From Wolbachia endosymbiont of Litomosoides sigmodontis (GTDB lineage Bacteria; Pseudomonadota; Alphaproteobacteria; Rickettsiales; Anaplasmataceae), in assembly GCF_013365435.1 (NCBI RefSeq), contig NZ_CP046577.1, positions 900,001 through 932,000 of the forward strand: a DNA stretch of 32,000 bases. Reading direction: 5' to 3'. Shown one piece after another: positions 5,460 through 31,419 of the stretch (position 1 is the stretch's first letter; the number at the start of each line of letters is the position of its first letter). A program made the position numbers and the translations under genes. Below the pieces are notes generated by a model. It saw nothing but the letters and a program-made list of their open reading frames with translations. It did no database searches and was not told the origin of the DNA.

Positions 5460-6016
5460 ATAGAGTTATTTCCCTTTGATAAATCGCGATTTGATACACG
5501 TTCAAAAGTTGAACATTGGTGACTTTAAAATGGCATTAGAACACAGATTGCAGTAAAATTAAGTAGATAAAAACTTTTATCTCTACAGTGCAGTTAATCC
5601 TAAGAAATGGAAAGAGCTTTAGCTTATTTGTACTGGATATATTAACACTGATTGTATGAATGTATCTCTTAAACAAACGTTGCAATATTTAAAAATATGA
5701 TGAGCCTTAATTAATATGAAATTAGTATTAGCACGTTAGCATAACTTATCATGGATTGTGCTAGTTAATATAAGTCAAAAAATTTAAAATTACCTAAAAA
5801 TATTGAGACTATATACCTACCACTATACTCAGAACTCAATTTTATTGAGAGATTTTGGTTGTACATAAAACAGAACATCCTGCATAATAAAGTCTATAAC
5901 ACAATTGCTTTCTTTGAGAAGGCTGTATACCAATTTATTACCTCTTTACCTCTTGCTCCGCAATCAAATAACTCTACAATGTTACTTATTTAACCACTAA
6001 CAATATGAAGATTCGT
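5460..6016 (+). mobile_element. IS630-family element, 3' ~560 bp only (5'-truncated)
   Basis: It starts in the middle of the element (..TTGATAAATCGCGATTTGATACACGTTCAAAAGTTGAAC..) and runs to the right end (..AACCACTAACAATATGAAGATTCGTAT). It is an inverted repeat of 4297-4850. Confidence 0.8.
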
Positions 6017-6545: not shown

Positions 6546-8036
6546 ATGAAAGCTTGTTATTCATTTGACGATATACTCCTTTTACCAGCTTATTCTAATA
6601 TATTGCCTTGTGACGCAGATACAAAAACTTATTTAACAAATAGTATAGAACTCAACATCCCTCTGATATCTTCTGCAATGGATACTGTCACTGAATCAGA
6701 TTTTGCAATAGCTATTGCACAACATGGTGGAATAGGTTGCATACATAAAAACTTATCAATAGATGAGCAAGCTTCAGAAGTAAGGAGAGTAAAAAAATAC
6801 GAAAGTTGGATCGTATACAACCCAATCACAATTTCCCCGGACAAAACAGTTGCAGAAGCAATTTCATTGATGAAAGAGCATGATTATTCTTGTATTCCTG
6901 TAGTTGAGCAATGCAAGTTAGTCGGAATTTTAACTAACAAAGATATAAGATTTATTGAAGATCAGAACATGAGTACAAAAGTCTCTGAGGTAATGACAAA
7001 AGAGAAATTAGTTACAGTACGGGAGCAGGGGATAGACAGCACTTCAGCAATGAAACTCCTGCATGAAAACAGGATAGAGAAGCTTTTGGTCATAGATGAA
7101 AACTTCTGCTGCATAGGTCTGATCACAGCTAAAGACATTAAAGAATACAATAGATACCCCAATTCATGCAAAGATAGTAAAGGGCGGCTCAGAGTTGCCG
7201 CTGCAGTTGGCACTGGTAAAAAAGATGGTATAGAAAGATGTGAAGCTTTGATCAGAGAAGAGATTGACGTGATTATTGTAGATACTGCTCACGGTCATTC
7301 CGAAAATGTTATTAATACTATTAAAGAAATAAAAACAATGTATCCAAGTACGCAGCTAGTTGCTGGAAATATTACAACAAAAGAAGCTGCTGAAGCATTG
7401 ATTAACGCTGGTGCTGATGCAGTAAAGGTTGGGGTAGGGCCTGGATCAATTTGTACAACTAGAATAGTTACAGGTGTGGGTGTTCCACAATTTTCTGCAA
7501 TCCAAAGCGTTGCAGAAACATGTAAAACAAGAAAAGTAAGGTTAATTGCTGATGGTGGAGTGAAATACTCAGGAGATATTGCAAAAGCTATTGCAGCTGG
7601 TGCTGATTCCGTAATGATAGGTGCAATTTTTGCTGGTACTAATGAAAGTCCAGGTGAGATTATCATGTATAAAGGTAGAGCATATAAAAGTTATCGAGGA
7701 ATGGGGTCTATCAGTGCAATGAAACGAGGTTCTGCTAGCCGTTATTTTCAAGATAAAGATCCAAAACTCAAATTAGTTCCACAAGGAGTGGAAGGAAGAG
7801 TGCCATTCAAAGGTCCAGCTTCAGGAGTAATTCATCAATTAATTGGTGGGTTACAAGCTGCAATGGGGTATACCGGTAATAGAAATATAGAAGAGATGAA
7901 AGAAAACTGTAAGTTTACAGTTATGACTGCATCAGGATTAAGAGAAAGCCATGTTCATGACATAACTATCACACAGGAATCTCCAAATTATGTTTATCAA
8001 GTGTCCAACAACTTGTCAATTGATTCAGACGTCTAA
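6546..8036 (+). CDS. guaB: IMP dehydrogenase, copy 1
   Basis: The 496-aa ORF starts with SFDDILLLPAYS and has a CBS pair (residues ~95-205). The catalytic Cys loop GVGPGSICTTR, GGVKYSGDIAKA and YRGMGS are all present. Confidence 0.97.
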   Translation: MKACYSFDDILLLPAYSNILPCDADTKTYLTNSIELNIPLISSAMDTVTESDFAIAIAQHGGIGCIHKNLSIDEQASEVRRVKKYESWIVYNPITISPDKTVAEAISLMKEHDYSCIPVVEQCKLVGILTNKDIRFIEDQNMSTKVSEVMTKEKLVTVREQGIDSTSAMKLLHENRIEKLLVIDENFCCIGLITAKDIKEYNRYPNSCKDSKGRLRVAAAVGTGKKDGIERCEALIREEIDVIIVDTAHGHSENVINTIKEIKTMYPSTQLVAGNITTKEAAEALINAGADAVKVGVGPGSICTTRIVTGVGVPQFSAIQSVAETCKTRKVRLIADGGVKYSGDIAKAIAAGADSVMIGAIFAGTNESPGEIIMYKGRAYKSYRGMGSISAMKRGSASRYFQDKDPKLKLVPQGVEGRVPFKGPASGVIHQLIGGLQAAMGYTGNRNIEEMKENCKFTVMTASGLRESHVHDITITQESPNYVYQVSNNLSIDSDV

Positions 8037-8267: not shown

Positions 8268-9485
8268 ATACCAATTTCTACCATATAAAGAACGGATAGA
8301 CAATAATGAACAAGAAGTCTTCTGAAGCAAGTAAAGTAGCGAGGGTAAAATGGCGTTGAAATCAAAATTTTTGGATAAAAAGTCGTGTAGTCAGCAAAAG
8401 AAATGTTAAAAAAGTGCGAAATGACGTATATGTTACAAAAAATTAAATGCTGTAATTGTAGCAAAAAAGCATAATATATAACAGCCATAGCAAAAACATG
8501 TTGTTCTTCGAGAACAGCATTACTACATAAATAAAGCTCTAAAATTTAGAAGAGAAATAAAATTGTTTACTCTCTGCTTAATGTCATAAAAAAAACTAGA
8601 TTAAATCAGAGTTAATTTGAACAAGTTAAAGATAGATACAAGAAAATCCTAATATTGCCATTCAAGAAAAAAGAAGAAACTTGAGCGCTTGTCTGTAATA
8701 CAGTATAGTAATTACTCTGAGCAGTATAGCACGGACAATACCATTATAAGAAAATACGATATTAGGGATATAGTAAGAATAATAATCCAGAAAAAATTTG
8801 GCTTGAATGTCAGCAAGACTACAGCACATTGTAATATGTAAAAATGAAATTCCAGTATACTATGCCAAGATTAATTTACAAAGAACAAGATAAAAGGTAG
8901 ATAGGAAGAGTTTAAAAAACTTAATAAAGTTATTGATAAGTATCTATGAACAAAAGTTACTCATCTTTGATGAATTGGTTTGGTATACATTTAAAGTTGG
9001 ACACAGTGATTTAAAAAAGACGTTAGAACACAGATTAAAGTAAAATTAGGTAGACAAAAAATTCTTATCTTTACAGAGTAGAAAGTTCTAGTTTATTTGC
9101 AATGAATGCCAACATTTATTATATGAATATATTTCTTGAATAAATGTTACAATATTCAAGAACACAAAAAGCTTTATTAATATAAAATTAATATTAGCAC
9201 GTTAGCACATCTTATCATAAATTGTGCTAGTTAGCATAAGTCAAAAAATTTAAAGGTACCCCAAAATATTAAGATTATATACCTACCACATATATTTACC
9301 AGAGCTCAGTCTCCTTGAGAGACTTTAGTTGTATATAAAACAAAATGTTTTGTATAATAAAGCCTATAATAGAATAACTTTATTTGAAAGCTCTTTGTAC
9401 AAATTTATCATCTCTCTTTCTCACTTTGCAATCAAACAATTCTGCAACGCCACCTATTGATACACAACATATAAGGATTTGTATC
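8268..9485 (+). mobile_element. IS630-family element, longest copy, degenerate (transposase pseudogene)
   Basis: The left end ATACCAATTTCTACCATATAAAGAACGGATAG resembles the reverse complement of the right end (imperfect TIR). The N-terminal HTH peptide MALKSKFLDKK.. breaks off after a few codons. The central block reads ..LEHRLKVKLGRQK.LIFTE... The 3' block reads ..NIKIIYLP../..PELSLLERL*LYIKQNVL.. in shifted frames. That is a decayed version of the IS630/Tc1-mariner LPPYSPELNPIERLW motif carrying the catalytic E. Confidence 0.85.
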
Positions 9486-10040: not shown

Positions 10041-11531
10041 ATGAAAGCTTGTTATTCATTTGACGATATACTCCTTTTACCAGCTTATTCTAATATATTG
10101 CCTTGTGACGCAGATACAAAAACTTATTTAACAAATAGTATAGAACTCAACATCCCTCTGATATCTTCTGCAATGGATACTGTCACTGAATCAGATTTTG
10201 CAATAGCTATTGCACAACATGGTGGAATAGGTTGCATACATAAAAACTTATCAATAGATGAGCAAGCTTCAGAAGTAAGGAGAGTAAAAAAATACGAAAG
10301 TTGGATCGTATACAACCCAATCACAATTTCCCCGGACAAAACAGTTGCAGAAGCAATTTCATTGATGAAAGAGCATGATTATTCTTGTATTCCTGTAGTT
10401 GAGCAATGCAAGTTAGTCGGAATTTTAACTAACAAAGATATAAGATTTATTGAAAATCAGAACATGAGTACAAAAGTCTCTGAGGTAATGACAAAAGAGA
10501 AATTAGTTACAGTACGGGAGCAGGGGATAGACAGCACTTCAGCAATGAAACTCCTGCATGAAAACAGGATAGAGAAGCTTTTGGTCATAGATGAAAACTT
10601 CTGCTGCATAGGTCTGATCACAGCTAAAGACATTAAAGAATACAATAGATACCCCAATTCATGCAAAGATAGTAAAGGGCGGCTCAGAGTTGCCGCTGCA
10701 GTTGGCACTGGTAAAAAAGATGGTATAGAAAGATGTGAAGCTTTGATCAGAGAAGAGATTGACGTGATTATTGTAGATACTGCTCACGGTCATTCCGAAA
10801 ATGTTATTAATACTATTAAAGAAATAAAAACAATGTATCCAAGTACGCAGCTAGTTGCTGGAAATATTACAACAAAAGAAGCTGCTGAAGCGTTGATTAA
10901 CGCTGGTGCTGATGCAGTAAAGGTTGGGGTAGGGCCTGGATCAATTTGTACAACTAGAATAGTTACAGGTGTGGGTGTTCCACAATTTTCTGCAATCCAA
11001 AGCGTTGCAGAGACATGTAAAACAAGAAAAGTAAGGTTAATTGCTGATGGTGGAGTGAAATACTCAGGAGATATTGCAAAAGCTATTGCAGCTGGTGCTG
11101 ATTCCGTGATGATAGGTGCAATTTTTGCTGGTACTAATGAAAGTCCAGGTGAGATTATCATGTATAAAGGTAGAGCATATAAAAGTTATCGAGGAATGGG
11201 GTCTATCAGTGCAATGAAACGAGGTTCTGCTAGCCGTTATTTTCAAGATAAAGATCCAAAACTCAAATTAGTTCCACAAGGAGTGGAAGGAAGAGTGCCA
11301 TTCAAAGGTCCAGCTTCAGGAGTAATTCATCAATTAATTGGTGGGTTACAAGCTGCAATGGGGTATACCGGTAATAGAAATATAGAAGAGATGAAGAAAA
11401 ATTGTAAGTTTACAGTTATGACTGCATCAGGATTAAGAGAAAGCCATGTTCATGACATAACTATCACACAGGAATCTCCAAATTATGTTTATCAAGTATC
11501 CAACAACTTGTCAAGTGATTCAGACATCTAA
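10041..11531 (+). CDS. guaB: IMP dehydrogenase, copy 2
   Basis: A 496-aa ORF with 10 nucleotide differences from copy 1, giving D139N, E453K, I492S and V496I plus 6 synonymous changes. All catalytic motifs are intact. Confidence 0.97.
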   Translation: MKACYSFDDILLLPAYSNILPCDADTKTYLTNSIELNIPLISSAMDTVTESDFAIAIAQHGGIGCIHKNLSIDEQASEVRRVKKYESWIVYNPITISPDKTVAEAISLMKEHDYSCIPVVEQCKLVGILTNKDIRFIENQNMSTKVSEVMTKEKLVTVREQGIDSTSAMKLLHENRIEKLLVIDENFCCIGLITAKDIKEYNRYPNSCKDSKGRLRVAAAVGTGKKDGIERCEALIREEIDVIIVDTAHGHSENVINTIKEIKTMYPSTQLVAGNITTKEAAEALINAGADAVKVGVGPGSICTTRIVTGVGVPQFSAIQSVAETCKTRKVRLIADGGVKYSGDIAKAIAAGADSVMIGAIFAGTNESPGEIIMYKGRAYKSYRGMGSISAMKRGSASRYFQDKDPKLKLVPQGVEGRVPFKGPASGVIHQLIGGLQAAMGYTGNRNIEEMKKNCKFTVMTASGLRESHVHDITITQESPNYVYQVSNNLSSDSDI

Positions 11532-11767: not shown

Positions 11768-12425
11768 TATAAGACCAATTTCTACTATATAAAGAACGGA
11801 TAGACAATAATGAACAAGATAAAGGTAGACAGGAAGAGTTTAAAAAATTTAATGAGGCTATATTGGTAAGTGTCTATGAATAAGAGTTACTTTTCTTTGA
11901 TGAATTGAGGTTTGGTATACATTCAAAATTGGACACAGATGATTTAAAAAGGACTTAGAACACAGGTTAAAGTAAAATTAGGTAGACAAAAAAATTCTTA
12001 TCTCTACAGTGCAGTAGATTCTAGCAGTGAAGAAAGTTCTAGTTTATTTGTAATGAATACCAAGATTTATTATATGAATATATTTCTTGAACAAATGTCA
12101 CAATATTAAAGAACATGAGAAGCTTTATTAATATAAAATTAATATTAGCATGTTAGCCTGTCTTATCAGGAATTATACTAGCTAGTATAAGTCAAAAAAT
12201 TTAAAGGTACCTAAAAATATTGAAATTATATATTCACCAGAACTCAGTCCTTTTGAGAGACTTTAGTTGTATATAAAATAAAATGTTTTGTGTAATAAAG
12301 TCTATAATAGAATTGCTTTACTTGAGAGTTCTTTGTACAAATTTATTATCTCTCTTCCTCATTTCGCAATCAAACAATTCTGCAACGTCACTTATTTGAC
12401 CTACAAACAAAGAGAATTAATATAA
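11768..12425 (+). mobile_element. IS630-family element with a ~570-bp internal deletion
   Basis: Both ends are present: left ..TATAAGACCAATTTCTACTATATAAAGAACGGATAG and right ..GACCTACAAACAAAGAGAATTAATATA. The sequence jumps from ..AATGAACAAGA directly to TAAAGGTAGACAGG, which is the equivalent of 8315->8891 in the full copy. Confidence 0.8.
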
Positions 12426-14082: not shown

Positions 14083-15203
14083 AATACTAATTCTCATTGT
14101 AGTAAGTCAAATAAGTGACGTTGCAGAATTATTTGATTGCTGAGTAAGAAAGAGAGATAATAAATTTGTACAAAGAGTTCTCAAGTAAAGCAATTCTATT
14201 ATAGACTTTATTACACAAAACATTTTATTTTATATACAACTAAAGTCTCTCAAAAGGACTGAGCTCTGGTAAGTATATGTGGTGGATATATAATTTCAAT
14301 ATTTTTAGGTACCTTTAAATCTTTGAATCATGCTAACCAGCACAATTTATGATAAAATATGCTAATATTAATTTTATATTAATAAAGCTTCTCGTATTCT
14401 TAAATATTGTAACATTTGTTCAAGAAATATATTCATATAATAAATGTTGGCATTCATTGCAAATAAACTAGAACTTTCTCCGCTGCCAGAATTAGCTATA
14501 CTGTAGAGATAAGAATTTTGTCTACCTAATTTCACTTTTAACCTGTGTTCTAACATCCCTTTTAAATCATCTGTGTCCAATTTTTGAATATATACCAAAC
14601 CTCAATTCATTAAAGAAAAATAACTCTTGTTCATAGGCACTTACCAATAGCTTTGTTAAATTTTTAAACTCTTCCCGTCTACCTTTATCTTGCTCGTTGT
14701 AAATTGGTCTTGGCGTAGTATACAGAAACTTCATTTTTACATATTACAATGTGCTGTAGTCTTGCTGACATTCAAGCCAAATTTTTCTCTGGATTATTAT
14801 TCTTATTTCTTAAATGGCAATATTAAGGTTTTCTTGTATTTATATTTCAACTTATTCAAATTGACTCTGATTCAATCTAGATTGGGCAGAGAGTAAATAA
14901 CCTTTCTCCTTTTCTAAATTTTAGAGCTTTATTCATGTAGTCAATACTGTTCTCGAAGTACAACACGCTTTTGCTACGGCTCTGTTATATTGTACTTTTT
15001 TTGTTGCAATTACAGCATTTAATTTTTTTGTAATATATATGTCATTTCGCACTTTCTTTAACATTTCTTTTGCTGATTTCACGACTTTTTCATTCAATAA
15101 TTTTAATTTCAATGCCATTTGAACCTCGCAATTTTACTTACTCCAGTAAGACTTCCTGTCTATTATTGTTCACACATTCCTTGTGCATTGGGAATTAGTA
15201 TTA
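14083..15203 (-). mobile_element. IS630-family element, near full-length, degenerate
   Basis: The right-end TIR TAATACTAATTCTCATTGTAGTAAGTCAAATAAGTGA is at 14083 and the left end at about 15203. Supplied ORFs 14933-15118 (HTH: MALKLKLLNEKVVKSAKEMLKKVRNDIYITKKLNAVIATKK..) and 14374-14598 (..LEHRLKVKLGRQNSYLYSIANSGSGES..MNIFLEQM..) are transposase fragments in different frames. Confidence 0.85.
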
Positions 15204-24947: not shown

Positions 24948-25585
24948 TAAAATATACTGATGCGTTAGTGCTTTAATATACTATTTTAACATAGATATGT
25001 AATAGAGCAGAAAGATGTTAGCACAAAGTATTCAAGGTATGTTAGACGAAAGTGATAAATTTTTTATGCAAAAAAGCCTTCTAAAGAAGGCATTAAATTA
25101 AAAGATAGTATTATTAATAACATATTAATTTATCAAAGTTACGGAATACTAATAGTAGTTCTCATGCAAAAGCAATGCTACAAGATAGAGGCACAGCTAT
25201 AAAAATAAGCGAATTTTTAAATAGCAAATTTTACAAAAATCATAAAATCGTTGATTTTGCAATATTAAATAATGATGACAGAAAAATTATAAGTAATTAT
25301 GTTGTTGAGAGTGATGACGGTAAAAAAGTCAGATGTTATGACTTAGCTAATTCTTCTCTATATGAATGTGAATTACAATTTATAATTGGTACATAATGGA
25401 AAAGAATGTGCAACATTACATCGAGCTCTGATAGCAATGGCAATATTAAAATAATAGGATAGCAAACTAAGTTATCAAGATTTAAAGGAAACATAGACGT
25501 TAAAATCAAATTTGACGATAAGGAACCAAGTCTTATTGACGCTATAAAAGAACTAGAAATAGAAGAATTTCACCATATTAAGATC

Positions 25586-26619
25586 TAACACCAATTCTCA
25601 TTATTAGCTAGTCAAATGAGCGAAGTTACAGAATTGTTTAACTGCGGAGTGAGAAAAAAGAAAGGTAATAAATTTGCCAAGGCGCTCTTAAGCGAAGCTT
25701 TGTATTATAGATTTTATTATGTAAAATGTTCTGTTTTATATACAATCAAAATTCTTCAACAGGATTGAGCTTAGGTGAGTATGGTGACAGGTATATAGTC
25801 TCGATATTTTTAGGTACCTTTAAATTTTTCTACTTATTCTAACTAGCATGATCCTTGACAAGAAAGGTTTATCGTGTTCTTAAATATTATAAGATTTGTT
25901 TAAGAAATATATTCATACAATTAGTGTTGACATTCAGTATGAATAAGCTAGAACTCTTCCCATTTCTAGATCAACTGCACTGTAGAGATAAAAATTTTAT
26001 CTATCTAACTTTACTTTAACCTTACGTTCTAACACCCTTTTCAAATCACCAGTGTTTAACTTTCGAATGTGTACCAATAAATCGTGATTCATTAAAGAAA
26101 GACAACTCTTGTCCAGGATATTTGATAATCTCATTAAGTTTTTTAACTATTCCTGTCCACTTTATCCTGTTTATTATGGATTGGTCTTGACGTAAGATAT
26201 AAAATTTCATTTTATGCATATAATGATGTATAGACTTGCTGACATTTAAGTTAAATTTTTCCTAAATTCTTATTCTCATTTCTTTAATGGTGATATTAGT
26301 TTTTTGTATTCATATTTCAACTTGTTTAAATTGACTCTGATTCAATCTAATTATTTTCCGATGTTGAGGAGAAGCAAATAAATTTCTTTTCTTTCAAATT
26401 TTAGTACTTTATCTGTGTAGTTAGTACTGTTCGCAAAATGAGACATATTTTTACTACAGCTGTTATAGTGTATTTTTCTGCAATTACAGCATTTAGTTTT
26501 TTTGCAACATATACATTATCTCGCATTTTCTTCAGCATTTCTTGTGCTGATTTCATGACTTTTTCATTTAATAATTTTGATTTCAATATCATTTAAACCT
26601 CGTTATTTACTTGCTTCAG
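25586..26619 (-). mobile_element. IS630-family element, degenerate, lacking the outermost ~35-60 bp of its left end
   Basis: The right-end TIR is at 25586 (TAACACCAATTCTCATTATTAGCTAGTCAAATGAG). The HTH fragment ORF 26401-26592 reads MILKSKLLNEKVMKSAQEMLKK... 25605-26600 is 99.4% identical to the reverse complement of 27226-28221. Confidence 0.85.
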
Positions 26620-26914
26620 TTTGGCAAGAATTAGCATAAGATTTTCCCTGAAGAGATCTACATACAAAAGGCCTTTGAACCTAAAAAATTACCAAGATCT
26701 CACATATATAATGCCCATACTGTTAAAAATGCTTTTGTACTATTTTATCTATTTCTTCTAAATATTTATCACTAGAGTTACTTGTATTACAAGACCTATT
26801 TATAAAATATAAAATTCTTAAATATTTTATTAATCTCAGCTCTGTACCTAGCTTAGTTACCTACTTAACTGAGACTTTAGCTCCCTTTCTTCAATTCTAT
26901 GTTTTTTAACATTA

Positions 26915-27148
26915 TAAATATGAATAACTTACTATACTGCTCAAGCTTATCAAGTTTCTTTTGCAGATCATTTTGTCTATTTTGTAGAATTTTAATCTGA
27001 TCATCAAGACCAATAATTTGTCCAACTCCTTTTTTAAATTTGTTCAGATTCGCTCTTTGATCTGCAGAAATTCTCCCTCGAATGCAGCAGAGTTATTTTT
27101 CTCTTTAGAAAGAGTTAGAATTTCAACTTTTTCTTCGTACTCTTTGGC
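26915..27148 (-). pseudogene. Remnant of a coiled-coil protein gene trapped between the two inverted IS copies
   Basis: My translation of the minus strand gives AKEYEEKVEILTLSKEKNNSAAFEGEFLQIKERI*. After a frameshift it continues ANLNKFKKGVGQIIGLDDQIKILQNRQNDLQKKLDKLEQYSK. The 5' end is cut by the IS terminus at 27149. Function is unassignable. Confidence 0.35.
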
Positions 27149-28238
27149 TAATACCAATTCTTACCACACAAGGAACGGATAGACAATAACAGAAAAGAGG
27201 CTTTGCTGAAATAAGTAAAATAGCAAGGTTTAAATGGTATTGAAATCAAAATTATTAAATGAAAAAGTCATGAAATCAGCACAAGAAATACTGAAGAAAA
27301 CGCGAGATAATGTATATGTTGCAAAAAAACTAAATGCTGTAATTGCAGAAAAATACACTATAACAGCTGTAGTAAAAATATGTCTCATTTTGCGAACAGT
27401 ACTAACTACACAGATAAAGTACTAAAATTTGAAAGAAAAGAAATTTATTTGCTTCTCCTCAACATCGGAAAATAATTAGATTGAATCAGAGTCAATTTAA
27501 ACAAGTTGAAATATGAATACAAAAAACTAATATCACCATTAAAGAAATGAGAATAAGAATTTAGGAAAAATTTAACTTAAATGTCAGCAAGTCTATACAT
27601 CATTATATGCATAAAATGAAATTTTATATCTTACGTCAAGACCAATCCATAATAAACAGGATAAAGTAGACAGGAATAGTTAAAAAACTTAATGAGATTA
27701 TCAAATATCCTGGACAAGAATTGTCTTTCTTTAATGAATCACGATTTATTGGTACACATTCGAAAGTTAAACACTGGTGATTTGAAAAGGGTGTTAGAAC
27801 GTAAGGTTAAAGTAAAGTTAGATAGATAAAATTTTTATCTCTACAGTGCAGTTGATCTAGAAATGGGAAGAGTTCTAGCTTATTCATACTGAATGTCAAC
27901 ACTAATTGTATGAATATATTTCTTAAACAAATCTTATAATATTTAAGAACACGATAAACCTTTCTTGTCAAGGATCATGCTAATTAGAATAAGTAGAAAA
28001 ATTTAAAGGTACCTAAAAATATCGAGACTATATACCTGTCACCATACTCACCTAAGCTCAATCCTGTTGAAGAATTTTGATTGTATATAAAACAGAACAT
28101 TTTACATAATAAAATCTATAATACAAAGCTTCGCTTAAGAGCGCCTTGGCAAATTTATTACCTTTCTTTTTTCTCACTCCGCAGTTAAACAATTCTGTAA
28201 CTTCGCTCATTTGACTAGCTACTACTAAAATTAGTATA
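27149..28238 (+). mobile_element. IS630-family element, full-length ends, degenerate
   Basis: The left end is TAATACCAATTCTTACCACACAAGGAACGGATAG and the right end ..GACTAGCTACTACTAAAATTAGTATA. The HTH fragment ORF 27234-27425 carries the same premature stop as its inverted partner. Confidence 0.85.
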
Positions 28239-28869
28239 AGCACTTTCCTAGCACCTCTTTTTGAAGCCGCTAGCTTTAAGCTAGATGATATTTCACTTTC
28301 ACTTAATATCTAACTTATATTAAACACTTCGCTGTTATTTGTTACTAAAGCAGTTGATGTTGTTTAACCAAATAATATTCCACTACCACTTAACATTGAG
28401 CTTGCACTAAATATTTCGTTATCATTTATTGTGCGTGCTTGTCATTTGATGACACCTCACTATCCTTGACGTACATCAAATACTTTACTGTTACTTATTA
28501 AGCTTGGATTGAAAGTTAAGAAAGCGTGAGCTTTACTCTTTTTAAGAGGCTCGATTATTCTTAATCTTTGGCCTAACTTTTATTGGTACTACTTCACATT
28601 TTATTGAAGCAGAATCAAAAATAACCAGCCTACCAATAGGCTTTACAATTCTGCTAGCTGATTTATACTTCTTTGGACTTTCTTTTTACTCATCTTGAGT
28701 TGAGTTTTCAATTTTTTAATACAACTCAACTTTAAATGTTAATTATTAACTATGTGCAAATACTATTTTGGTACAAAAGTTTCTAAGCTATTTGTAAAGC
28801 AAGGAAACAAAGACTTAACTTCTGCAGCTAAATAATGGACTATCAAGGGCACACATAAATATCTCTACA

Positions 28870-31419
28870 ATGCAAAAAAAAACTTTCACAATTATCGATG
28901 GTTACAGCTTTCTTTTTAGAGCTTATTACGTTTTGCATCATTTAACTACCACAACCGGTATGCCAATAGGTGCTGTATACGGATTTCTGAATATGGTTCT
29001 AAAGTATATCATACATTCAGATTACTTAACCATAGTACTTGACTCCGGTAAAAAAAATTTCAGACATGATTTATACCCTGAGTATAAAGCAAACAGAGTC
29101 ATTCCTCCTGAAGATTTAATTCCACAATTTACAATACTGAGGGAAGCAATAGAAGCTTTTAACCTCAGTTACGAAGAGATCGAAGGCTATGAAGCAGATG
29201 ATATAATTGCAACACTAGCTACAAAATATGCCAACCACCAAGATTTTAAAATAGTAATAATTTCATCAGATAAAGATTTGCTTCAGCTCTTGAACTACAA
29301 CGTTTTAATATTTGATCCTATCAAAAATATATACATAGATGAAAAACAAATAATGGAAAAATTTGGTGTAAACTTAAACAAGCTTCTTGATTTATTTTCT
29401 CTTACTGGAGATGCATCCGATAACATTCCTGGTGTTCCAGGAATAGGCCCAAAGACCGCAGCTAAATTGCTAGATGAATTTGATTCATTAAACAATATTA
29501 TAAAAAACATCAATAACATCAAGCAAACAAGAATACGTAATATCCTCAATGAGCATAAAGAAAAAGCGTTAATTTCAAGAGAACTTTTATCACTATGTAA
29601 AAAAGTTAATCTCCAACATGACGCAGTAAAATATAAGATTCTCTCTCCAAATATGGATAAATTATTATCTTTTTTAAAGAAGTATGAATTAAATTCCTTG
29701 ATAAATAAAGTAGAAAAGCTTTTTTCTTATAATGAACCTAATATAAAAGAGAAAACAGAATATAGCAATGAAGCACTAGAAAAATTTTTGGAACACTGCA
29801 GATACAAAGACAAAATTGCAATTTATTGCCATTTTGAAAAAAAAATACTTAGTAAAATCTCCCTATCTTGTAATGAAGATAATATTTTCTACATAGACCA
29901 AAACTATTTACAAGATGGACTTATTACAATCAATTCAATTCTATTTTCAAAGGGGATACTTAAAATAATACATGATATCAGAGAAATCAGAAAAATCATT
30001 CCTACAATAGAAAAAGTACTTAGCTCAGTTGACGATTTGATGATAATGTCACACAGCCTAGACACAGGAAAACATGATCATAGCATTCCAAACATAATCG
30101 CACATAATTTGAGTAAAAATATAGAGACCTTTTCAGCAAAAACTTTAATAGAAATTCATAAAAAACTGAAACAAAGGTTATTTCAGGAAAAGCTTTTTAC
30201 AATTTACGAGCGCTTCGATAAGCCGCTTACAAAAGTAATACTTAACATGGAAAAAAATGGAATATTACTAAATATTCAAAAACTACAAAAATTGTCTGAT
30301 AAATTCCAACAGCTAATCGCTATACTTGAAAATGACATATATGATTTGGCAGGAGAAAAGTTTAACATTGCCTCACAAAAACAATTAAGTGATGTTCTCT
30401 TTAATAAGATGGAGCTTAATAAGAAAAAAAAGTTGAAATCTGGGTCATATAGCACAAACTCCTCAGTACTAGAGGAACTTAAAATAGAAGGAGTTAAAAT
30501 TGCAAGCAAAATTTTAGATTGGCGACATTTAAGTAAATTAAAAGACACCTACACTGACGCACTAATAAAGCAAGTTGACCCGCTTAATGGCAGAATACAC
30601 ACAAATTTCTCAACAACTATAACTGCAACTGGAAAGCTCAATTCAAGCAACCCTAATTTGCAGAATATTCCTATCAGGAGCGAAGAAGGAAATCTTATTA
30701 GACAGGCATTTATTGCGCCAAAGGGATACAAGATAATCTCTTCTGATTACTCACAGATAGAACTAAGGCTTCTAGCACACATCGCAAATGTTGCTTCGTT
30801 TAAAGAAGCTTTTGCAAATGGAAAGGATATTCATAACATTACTGCAGAACAAGTCCTTGGAGTGCAAAAGGGCATAGAAGTTAATGAACAATTAAGGCGC
30901 AAAGCAAAATCTATTAATTTTGAAATTATATATGGAATAAGCCCTTTTGGCCTTGCAAAACGTCTTGGAATTTCCATTGAGAAAGCTAATGAGTACATTA
31001 ATTACTACTTCTCCTGTTACCCAGAAATAAAGATCTATATGGAAAAAGCAGTGTCTATCGCGAGACAGGATGGTTATATAGAAACTTTGTTTGGCAGAAG
31101 ATGCTTTGTAAAAGACATAAACAACACAATTCCTTATCTAAGACAATTTGCGGAAAGAGCGGCAATAAATGCACCACTGCAAGGAACTGCCGCTGATATA
31201 ATAAAACGTGCAATGATTCAGCTTTTTGATCAATTAAAAACAGGCAAAATAATCCTCCAAGTTCATAATGAGCTATTAGTTGAAGTAGAGGATAAAAAAG
31301 TACAAGAAACAGCAAAACTTATGAAAGATGTAATGGAAAATGTAGTGAAAATTTCTATACCACTTAAGGTAGAGGTAAAAATCAGTGATAACTGGGGAGC
31401 AATCAGACAAACATTGTGA
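28870..31419 (+). CDS. polA: DNA polymerase I (5'-nuclease + degenerate 3'-5' exo-like linker + family A polymerase domain)
   Basis: In the 849-aa ORF the 5'-nuclease motifs are intact: IIDGYSFLFRAYY, YKANR, GYEADDIIATLA, SSDKDLLQL and LTGDASDNIPGVPGIGPKTA. The polymerase motifs are A DYSQIELRLLAH, B RRKAKSINFEIIYG and C QVHNEL (normally QVHDEL). Confidence 0.95.
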   Translation: MQKKTFTIIDGYSFLFRAYYVLHHLTTTTGMPIGAVYGFLNMVLKYIIHSDYLTIVLDSGKKNFRHDLYPEYKANRVIPPEDLIPQFTILREAIEAFNLSYEEIEGYEADDIIATLATKYANHQDFKIVIISSDKDLLQLLNYNVLIFDPIKNIYIDEKQIMEKFGVNLNKLLDLFSLTGDASDNIPGVPGIGPKTAAKLLDEFDSLNNIIKNINNIKQTRIRNILNEHKEKALISRELLSLCKKVNLQHDAVKYKILSPNMDKLLSFLKKYELNSLINKVEKLFSYNEPNIKEKTEYSNEALEKFLEHCRYKDKIAIYCHFEKKILSKISLSCNEDNIFYIDQNYLQDGLITINSILFSKGILKIIHDIREIRKIIPTIEKVLSSVDDLMIMSHSLDTGKHDHSIPNIIAHNLSKNIETFSAKTLIEIHKKLKQRLFQEKLFTIYERFDKPLTKVILNMEKNGILLNIQKLQKLSDKFQQLIAILENDIYDLAGEKFNIASQKQLSDVLFNKMELNKKKKLKSGSYSTNSSVLEELKIEGVKIASKILDWRHLSKLKDTYTDALIKQVDPLNGRIHTNFSTTITATGKLNSSNPNLQNIPIRSEEGNLIRQAFIAPKGYKIISSDYSQIELRLLAHIANVASFKEAFANGKDIHNITAEQVLGVQKGIEVNEQLRRKAKSINFEIIYGISPFGLAKRLGISIEKANEYINYYFSCYPEIKIYMEKAVSIARQDGYIETLFGRRCFVKDINNTIPYLRQFAERAAINAPLQGTAADIIKRAMIQLFDQLKTGKIILQVHNELLVEVEDKKVQETAKLMKDVMENVVKISIPLKVEVKISDNWGAIRQTL

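Follow-up and report, generated by a model that had tools for sequence, protein, structure and literature searches.

Does a bacterial DNA polymerase I (Pol I) that has lost a metal-binding aspartate from its polymerase site still act as a polymerase, or chiefly as a nuclease? This question is raised by the polA gene of wLsig, the supergroup D Wolbachia endosymbiont of Litomosoides sigmodontis, which lies in a 32,000-nucleotide stretch of its genome (contig NZ_CP046577.1, positions 900,001–932,000; referred to here as the window). Pol I is nearly universal among bacteria. An earlier note on this DNA had described an Asn where the encoded protein should have the catalytic Asp of motif C, two further deviations in the polymerase domain, and an intact 5′-nuclease. 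The comparisons presented here suggest that wLsig PolA probably works mainly as a flap nuclease, and not as a polymerase. The published wLsig genome is circular, with 1,045,802 bp and 32.1% G+C (Lefoulon et al. 2020; PMC8116671); the window has a G+C content of 31.3%, and the genome paper makes no mention of polA.

Both its architecture and its closest relatives identify the protein as a genuine orthologue of Pol I. A single 849-residue open reading frame (ORF) joins a flap endonuclease (FEN)-like 5′-3′ exonuclease to a family-A polymerase, the arrangement by which Pol I orthologues (PolA1) are recognized, and it matches the Pfam families 5_3_exonuc_N (PF02739, E=2.4e-51; residues 6–166), 5_3_exonuc (PF01367, E=6.6e-27; residues 170–261) and DNA_pol_A (PF00476, E=1.4e-142). 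The nearest proteins are those of wLbra, the Wolbachia of Litomosoides brasiliensis (89% identity), and of wWb, from Wuchereria bancrofti (87%), each at 100% coverage. Coordinates of the gene, its domains and the residues discussed below are given in Table 1.

Three classical residues of the polymerase active site are replaced. In a phmmer alignment against PDB chains, wLsig residues 438–844 align with residues 422–829 of Taq polymerase, and the segments QVHNEL/QVHDEL, INFE/INFG and TATGKLNSS/TATGRLSSS are paired in gap-free, high-confidence blocks. The Taq numbers (D785, G668 and R573) follow from a residue count along this alignment. When E. coli Pol I is aligned to the protein with MAFFT, N800 falls at D882, E685 at G763, K589 at R668 and N591 at S670. 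Thus, the earlier placement of N800 at the catalytic motif C position, of E685 at the Gly of INFG, and of a Lys at the Arg of TGRLSS is borne out. In the Klenow enzyme, D705, D882 and E883 are catalytic residues, while R668 is involved in substrate binding or catalysis (PMC10520511). Compared with an active family-A polymerase, wLsig PolA lacks the metal-binding Asp of motif C (N800) and the TGRLSS Arg that contacts the primer terminus (K589), and retains the metal-binding Asp of motif A (D626). Its O-helix carries R676, K680, F684 and Y688, which correspond to Klenow R754, K758, F762 and Y766, with a Glu at the equivalent of G763. The equivalents of D705, E710, R841, N845, Q849, H881 and E883 are also kept. 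At the equivalents of ten Klenow DNA-backbone contacts (as listed in PMC10520511), wLsig has the same residues as other Wolbachia.

All features examined in the FEN/5′-3′ exonuclease domain are present. The nine metal-binding carboxylates (D10, D58, E108, D110, D111, D134, D136, D181 and D184; E. coli D13, D63, E113, D115, D116, D138, D140, D185 and D188) are all in place, and none of 54 conserved nuclease columns deviates. Motif A and the 5′-nuclease are therefore canonical, as the earlier note had stated. The same note had failed to find the ExoI motif of the 3′-5′ exonuclease region. The motif is indeed absent, and Pfam detects no 3′-5′ exonuclease domain in wLsig PolA. However, this is not peculiar to the gene: PF01612 is missing from every Wolbachia, Ehrlichia and Anaplasma homologue examined, so that the DEDDy proofreading signature is lacking clade-wide. 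As the absence is common to the Anaplasmataceae relatives, we rejected it as a part of the event at the polymerase site. A vestigial 3′-5′ exonuclease is also found in Taq, Bst and mycobacterial Pol1. About half of Pol I orthologues carry substitutions in the DEDDy motif, according to a survey from 2026 that covered more than 3000 bacterial genomes (PMC12926913); loss of these motifs in Pol I is ancient and common, in contrast to the loss of the catalytic Asp from the polymerase site.

The rarity of the three replacements was assessed with two sets of sequences. The first was an alignment of the 120 best PolA homologues, 115 of them full-length, in which columns with at least 97% conservation were defined as conserved. 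The second consisted of 150 diverse PolA sequences (50%-identity clusters), obtained by a HMMER search of 1.84 billion cluster representatives using the polymerase domain. Among the 120 best homologues, all other Wolbachia, Ehrlichia, Anaplasma and distant alphaproteobacterial proteins have Arg, Gly (Ser in two) and Asp at these positions, with the sole exception of C61_2, a Wolbachia metagenome-assembled genome (MAG) described below. The corresponding columns are 98–99% conserved in the 115 full-length proteins. In the second set, the R668 column holds Arg in 150/150 representatives and the D882 column holds Asp in 148/150; the other two have aberrant C-termini, where the match to the query stops before motif C. 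The G763 column contains Gly (142), Ser (7) or Ala (1), and never Glu. None of the 150 representatives has Lys, Glu or Asn at the R668, G763 and D882 columns, respectively. Outside wLsig and C61_2, the two metal-binding aspartates of Pol I are invariant in every intact relative examined.

The three classical active-site changes are derived and peculiar to wLsig. At these sites, Asp, Gly and Arg are kept in wWb and in wLbra, the sister strain; across some 260 PolA proteins other than that of wLsig the same residues occur, with an occasional Ser or Ala for the Gly and with C61_2 as the one exception. Alignment with PolA of other Wolbachia and Anaplasmataceae, which had been proposed as a check, shows N800 and E685 to be lineage-specific. 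Altogether, wLsig PolA departs from the conserved columns at six positions (Y395H, R589K, S591N, F663L, G685E and D800N), of which five are in the polymerase domain. S591N and F663L are older than the split between wLsig and wLbra, since both are also present in wLbra, which carries two further motif B changes of its own, I686S and G694D. Deviations of this kind in the polymerase domain are absent from 41 of 64 full-length Wolbachia PolA clusters; wLsig has five, wLbra four, C61_2 eleven, and P0046, from another Wolbachia MAG, five. P0046 (contig 1,136,253; 85% identical to C61_2 PolA) keeps the catalytic Asp, and its changes include T529I, N596D and N599S, at the equivalents of the Klenow DNA contacts T609, N675 and N678. 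The changes in P0046 and wLbra raise the possibility that the polymerase domain came under weaker constraint ahead of the catalytic hits.

The change is confined to a few catalytic positions and does not extend over the whole domain. We compared wLsig with wLbra by the Nei-Gojobori method. The ratio of nonsynonymous to synonymous rates (dN/dS) is 0.14 for the nuclease, 0.22 for the middle region and 0.25 for the polymerase domain (dS∼0.25), where the difference between nuclease and polymerase is not significant (Fisher p=0.15). The domain-wise comparison suggested earlier thus does not set the two domains apart. The dN to the wCcry outgroup is the same for wLsig and wLbra (0.090 and 0.090). 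Changes along each branch were counted after polarization with nine outgroups; the filter used had dropped D800N, which is shared with C61_2, and restoring it raises the nonsynonymous count of wLsig from 13 to 14. In the polymerase domain, the wLsig branch then has 14 nonsynonymous and 17 synonymous changes, compared to 15 and 19 on the wLbra branch. The proportion of nonsynonymous changes in wLsig (14/31) is far below the neutral expectation of 79% (p=4e-5). With this ratio far under neutral and a rate no faster than that of its sister, the wLsig polymerase domain is not a decaying pseudogene; the ORF is intact, without frameshift or early stop, and dN/dS (0.14–0.25) is not near 1. These dN/dS values and polarized counts led us to reject domain-wide relaxed selection. 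Of the earlier proposal of relaxed selection on, or loss of, the polymerase with retention of the FEN, the probable loss of catalysis is the part that we keep.

In a codon alignment with ten Wolbachia polA genes, each of the three active-site changes is a single G>A transition, the commonest substitution polarized to the wLsig polA branch (23/74). This branch is biased toward GC>AT changes (40 versus 27), while the wLbra branch shows the opposite trend (25 versus 42). With 31.6% G+C, polA of wLsig has the highest A+T content among the eleven Wolbachia polA genes compared.

A comparable pattern is found in a second lineage. The PolA of C61_2 is 77% identical to that of wLsig and is closest to that of wMoz (dS 0.29). 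It reads TATGSLNFS and QVHNEL at the two motifs, with changes R589S, S591N, S592F, N599S, P601S, R552Q (Klenow R631), R603K (R682), D749N (D827), G464E, A545T, G694V, A706V and D800N; N599S and P601S convert NIP to SIS. Of 12 changes at conserved columns, 11 are located in the polymerase domain and one in the nuclease. Sites 589, 591 and 800 are shared with the wLsig lineage, that is, three of the five wLsig columns are hit compared to 11 of 90 overall (hypergeometric p=0.012). C61_2 is an unrelated Wolbachia, in which the Asp to Asn and Arg to Ser changes arose independently of wLsig. That it arose a second time speaks for a biological pattern, and also suggests that, once synthesis is dispensable, residues needed solely for catalysis are released. 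On the C61_2 branch, 24 of 52 changes in the polymerase domain are nonsynonymous, compared to a neutral expectation of 79% (p=2e-7).

Taken together, we consider it fairly probable that wLsig PolA is a natural separation-of-function Pol I, in which polymerase catalysis would be lost or greatly reduced, the flap endonuclease kept, and the polymerase fold retained as a DNA-binding or structural module. Loss of catalysis with retention of the FEN is the best reading because the substitutions lie exactly at D882, G763 and R668 and are lineage-specific, while the 5′-nuclease is fully canonical. Three G>A transitions after the split from wLbra produced D882N, R668K and G763E. D882N replaces one of the two metal-binding aspartates, R668K replaces the Arg that contacts the primer terminus and dNTP, and G763E adjoins the dNTP-stacking Phe of the O-helix. 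In the proposed model, DNA synthesis by the enzyme would then be lost altogether or fall by orders of magnitude. The nuclease at the N-terminus, with its independent active site, could still clear RNA primers and flaps, and the remaining gaps would be filled by another polymerase, presumably Pol III. Because selection on the polymerase domain is still purifying and none of its DNA contacts has changed, the domain is most likely retained as a non-catalytic scaffold that places or stabilizes the nuclease. Such a protein could be an intermediate on the way to the stand-alone 5′-nucleases of bacteria without Pol I.

Experiments on Pol I of other bacteria are consistent with this model. The D684A-D861A mutant of Mycobacterium smegmatis Pol1 has less than 1% of polymerase activity and normal FEN/5′-3′ exonuclease (EXO) activity, indicating that the two active sites are independent, and insertions that shorten Pol1 at its C-terminus are tolerated in mycobacteria (PMC7102940). 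In the relevant passages of the 2026 survey, some bacteria are reported to be viable in the absence of Pol I's polymerase function provided that a 5′-3′ exonuclease is present, and most species without Pol I encode a solo 5′-nuclease; no Pol I orthologue whose polymerase site is disrupted is described in these passages (PMC12926913).

Several points weigh against this interpretation. Asn could weakly ligate metal, and with E801 (Klenow E883) and D626 intact, low residual activity is possible, which might suffice in a slow-growing symbiont. The asymmetry between nuclease and polymerase domains (0/54 versus 5/90 conserved columns) is not statistically significant for wLsig alone. The lack of rate acceleration relative to wLbra fits a still-functional polymerase domain equally well; if the domain were useless, the inactivation must be very recent. 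Finally, the wLsig bases rest on two contig records, which have equal length and are probably one and the same assembly.

A stronger version of the model, which we regard as possible but doubtful, is that the polymerase-dead Pol I is kept by selection rather than decaying, as a dedicated flap endonuclease targeted to particular DNA structures. The convergent hits at D882, R668 and S670 in wLsig and C61_2, combined with a constrained fold, would be compatible with this. Switching off a polymerase that lacks proofreading might itself be advantageous.

The alternative that fares best, although we think it unlikely, is that the enzyme is still a working polymerase, with the three changes tolerated or partly compensating one another and enough activity left to fill short gaps in an endosymbiont that grows slowly. 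Arg to Lys and Asp to Asn are chemically conservative, the equivalents of D705, E710, R754, K758, F762, Y766, H881 and E883 are intact, and the domain is under purifying selection that is strong and has not weakened relative to wLbra. Metal binding might fall to E801 and D626, or Glu685 might provide a carboxylate. However, all 148 intact representatives have Asp at D882 and all 150 have Arg at R668, from which we conclude that such changes are not normally tolerated, and mutation of both equivalent aspartates in M. smegmatis Pol1 leaves less than 1% of activity (PMC7102940). Glu685 is unlikely to be a relocated catalytic carboxylate, and is no general compensator, as C61_2 has the Asp to Asn change without the Gly to Glu change.

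It is less likely still that the inactivation is recent and neutral decay is just starting, such that the polymerase domain is functionless, the signal of selection predates the inactivation, and loss by frameshift or deletion lies ahead. The wLsig-specific hits number only three, and the three of 14 nonsynonymous wLsig changes that fall in the highly conserved 22% of polymerase columns match the expectation for random placement. Unusual changes were already present in wLbra or the common ancestor (S591N, F663L, I686S and G694D), and stand-alone 5′-nucleases do occur in species without Pol I (PMC12926913). On the other hand, the DNA-contact residues of wLsig are unchanged, and C61_2, which is further along with 11 conserved-site hits, still has an intact 860-residue ORF and a nonsynonymous proportion far under neutral (p=2e-7).

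A sequencing or assembly artefact, with true codons GAT, GGA and AGG, is the least likely explanation and highly improbable: the three changes are alike in being G>A on a single strand, and both records of the contig are probably one assembly, but the single-position error considered in the earlier note would have to be three separate errors, 288 and 345 bases apart, striking near-invariant active-site codons in a deep circular assembly of PacBio circular consensus sequencing reads (180,870 reads, 94.67% mapping to the genome; PMC8116671), with a substitution that is the commonest real one on this branch and an Asp to Asn change that recurs in an unrelated assembly.

Whichever account applies, relatives of the wLsig arrangement can be found among both engineered and natural proteins. 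The D785N mutant of Taq polymerase (‘TaqDN’) has reportedly been engineered as a polymerase-deficient 5′-nuclease. In Buchnera, polA is truncated to the 5′-nuclease part only. M. smegmatis Pol1 D684A-D861A (PMC7102940) and the Klenow D882 mutants resemble wLsig PolA in having FEN/EXO, vestigial exonuclease and polymerase (POL) regions with the same motif C Asp replaced. However, these are laboratory constructs, whereas the wLsig form is a natural, fixed allele with R668K and G763E in addition. Stand-alone 5′-nucleases, such as solo FEN homologues, Bacillus subtilis FenA and E. coli Xni, are similar to the proposed state of wLsig PolA in that the 5′-nuclease persists and the cell does without polymerase function from Pol I (PMC12926913). 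They differ in that the wLsig polymerase domain is present, full-length and under purifying selection, with the catalytic residues alone changed. Another parallel is bacterial PolX1, a repair polymerase of several domains whose nuclease site (a PHP exonuclease) is better conserved than its polymerase site and which keeps a dead polymerase domain (PMC12926913). PolX1 belongs to family X rather than A and has a different nuclease fold, and about a quarter of its family is affected, as opposed to a rare exception in Pol I.

The principle that the nuclease outweighs the polymerase in importance is already established. What appears to be new is that a full-length Pol I of natural origin, under selection and with a putatively disabled polymerase site, occurs in two Wolbachia lineages. 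If this is true, wLsig polA is an in vivo separation-of-function allele, and a symbiont with a reduced genome can forgo Pol I synthesis, but not its 5′-nuclease. The allele would further represent a stage between a complete Pol I and stand-alone nucleases, and bear on lagging-strand processing in reduced genomes. Among rodent models for filariasis drugs directed against Wolbachia, L. sigmodontis is the standard one; replication and repair in wLsig would then differ from those in the strains of human parasites, wBm and wWb, which have the canonical residues.

Table 1. Location of polA, its domains and the residues discussed; positions are those of the window except for C61_2.
Feature	Position	Strand	Remarks
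polA ORF, 849 aa	28870..31419	+	Intact, with neither frameshift nor internal stop; 100% identity to polA of contig OY365737.1 (1,045,802 bp)
5′-3′ exonuclease/flap endonuclease domain, aa 6–261	28885..29652	+	Pfam PF02739 and PF01367
Vestigial 3′-5′ exonuclease/linker region, aa 262–437	29653..30180	+	No DEDD motifs; no PF01612 match
Family-A polymerase domain, aa 438–849	30181..31416	+	PF00476 (E=1.4e-142), Pfam match aa 470–843; aligns with Taq 422–829
Y395H (CAC), in the vestigial exonuclease/linker region	30052-30054	+	From the conserved-column comparison
K589 (AAG), replaces Klenow R668/Taq R573 of TGRLSS, in TATGKLNSS	30634..30636	+	Single AGG>AAG, derived
N591 (AAT), replaces Klenow S670	30640..30642	+	Also in wLbra, older; convergent in C61_2
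D626, motif A catalytic Asp (Klenow D705), kept	30745..30747	+	DYSQIELR begins at aa 626
L663 (CTT), replaces a 98%-conserved Phe	30856..30858	+	Also in wLbra
E685 (GAA), replaces Klenow G763/Taq G668 in the O-helix, adjoins F762/F667, in INFEIIYG	30922..30924	+	Single GGA>GAA, derived
N800 (AAT), replaces motif C catalytic Asp, Klenow D882/Taq D785, in QVHNEL	31267..31269	+	Single GAT>AAT, derived
C61_2 polA, 860 aa	L007 3001-5583 (= L002 5001-7583), JBPETD010000001.1		Wolbachia sp. MAG; intact ORF; protein P0050

The surroundings of polA in the window have some features of their own. A Rfam scan of the window gave no matches. Two intact genes for a 496-residue IMP dehydrogenase (guaB) are located on the forward strand at 6546–8036 and 10041–11531, their products identical at 492 of 496 positions, and form a tandem direct repeat of about 3.5 kb. 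A recent duplication of this nucleotide-biosynthesis gene is unusual for a reduced filarial Wolbachia genome. The region upstream of polA (24948–28869) contains no ORF of at least 120 residues. Directly upstream of the gene is a 1007-nucleotide inverted repeat (25602–26608 and 27218–28224), whose arms are 99% complementary and 609 nucleotides apart; it could be an insertion sequence remnant or a duplicated pseudogene. Degraded dispersed repeat families, with 60–90% identity and in both orientations, occur at about 860–1030, 5700–5950, 9070–9460, 12020–12400, 14100–14500, 25700–25970 and 27850–28170, which suggests that old remnants of mobile elements or pseudogenes lie around the guaB duplication and upstream of polA.

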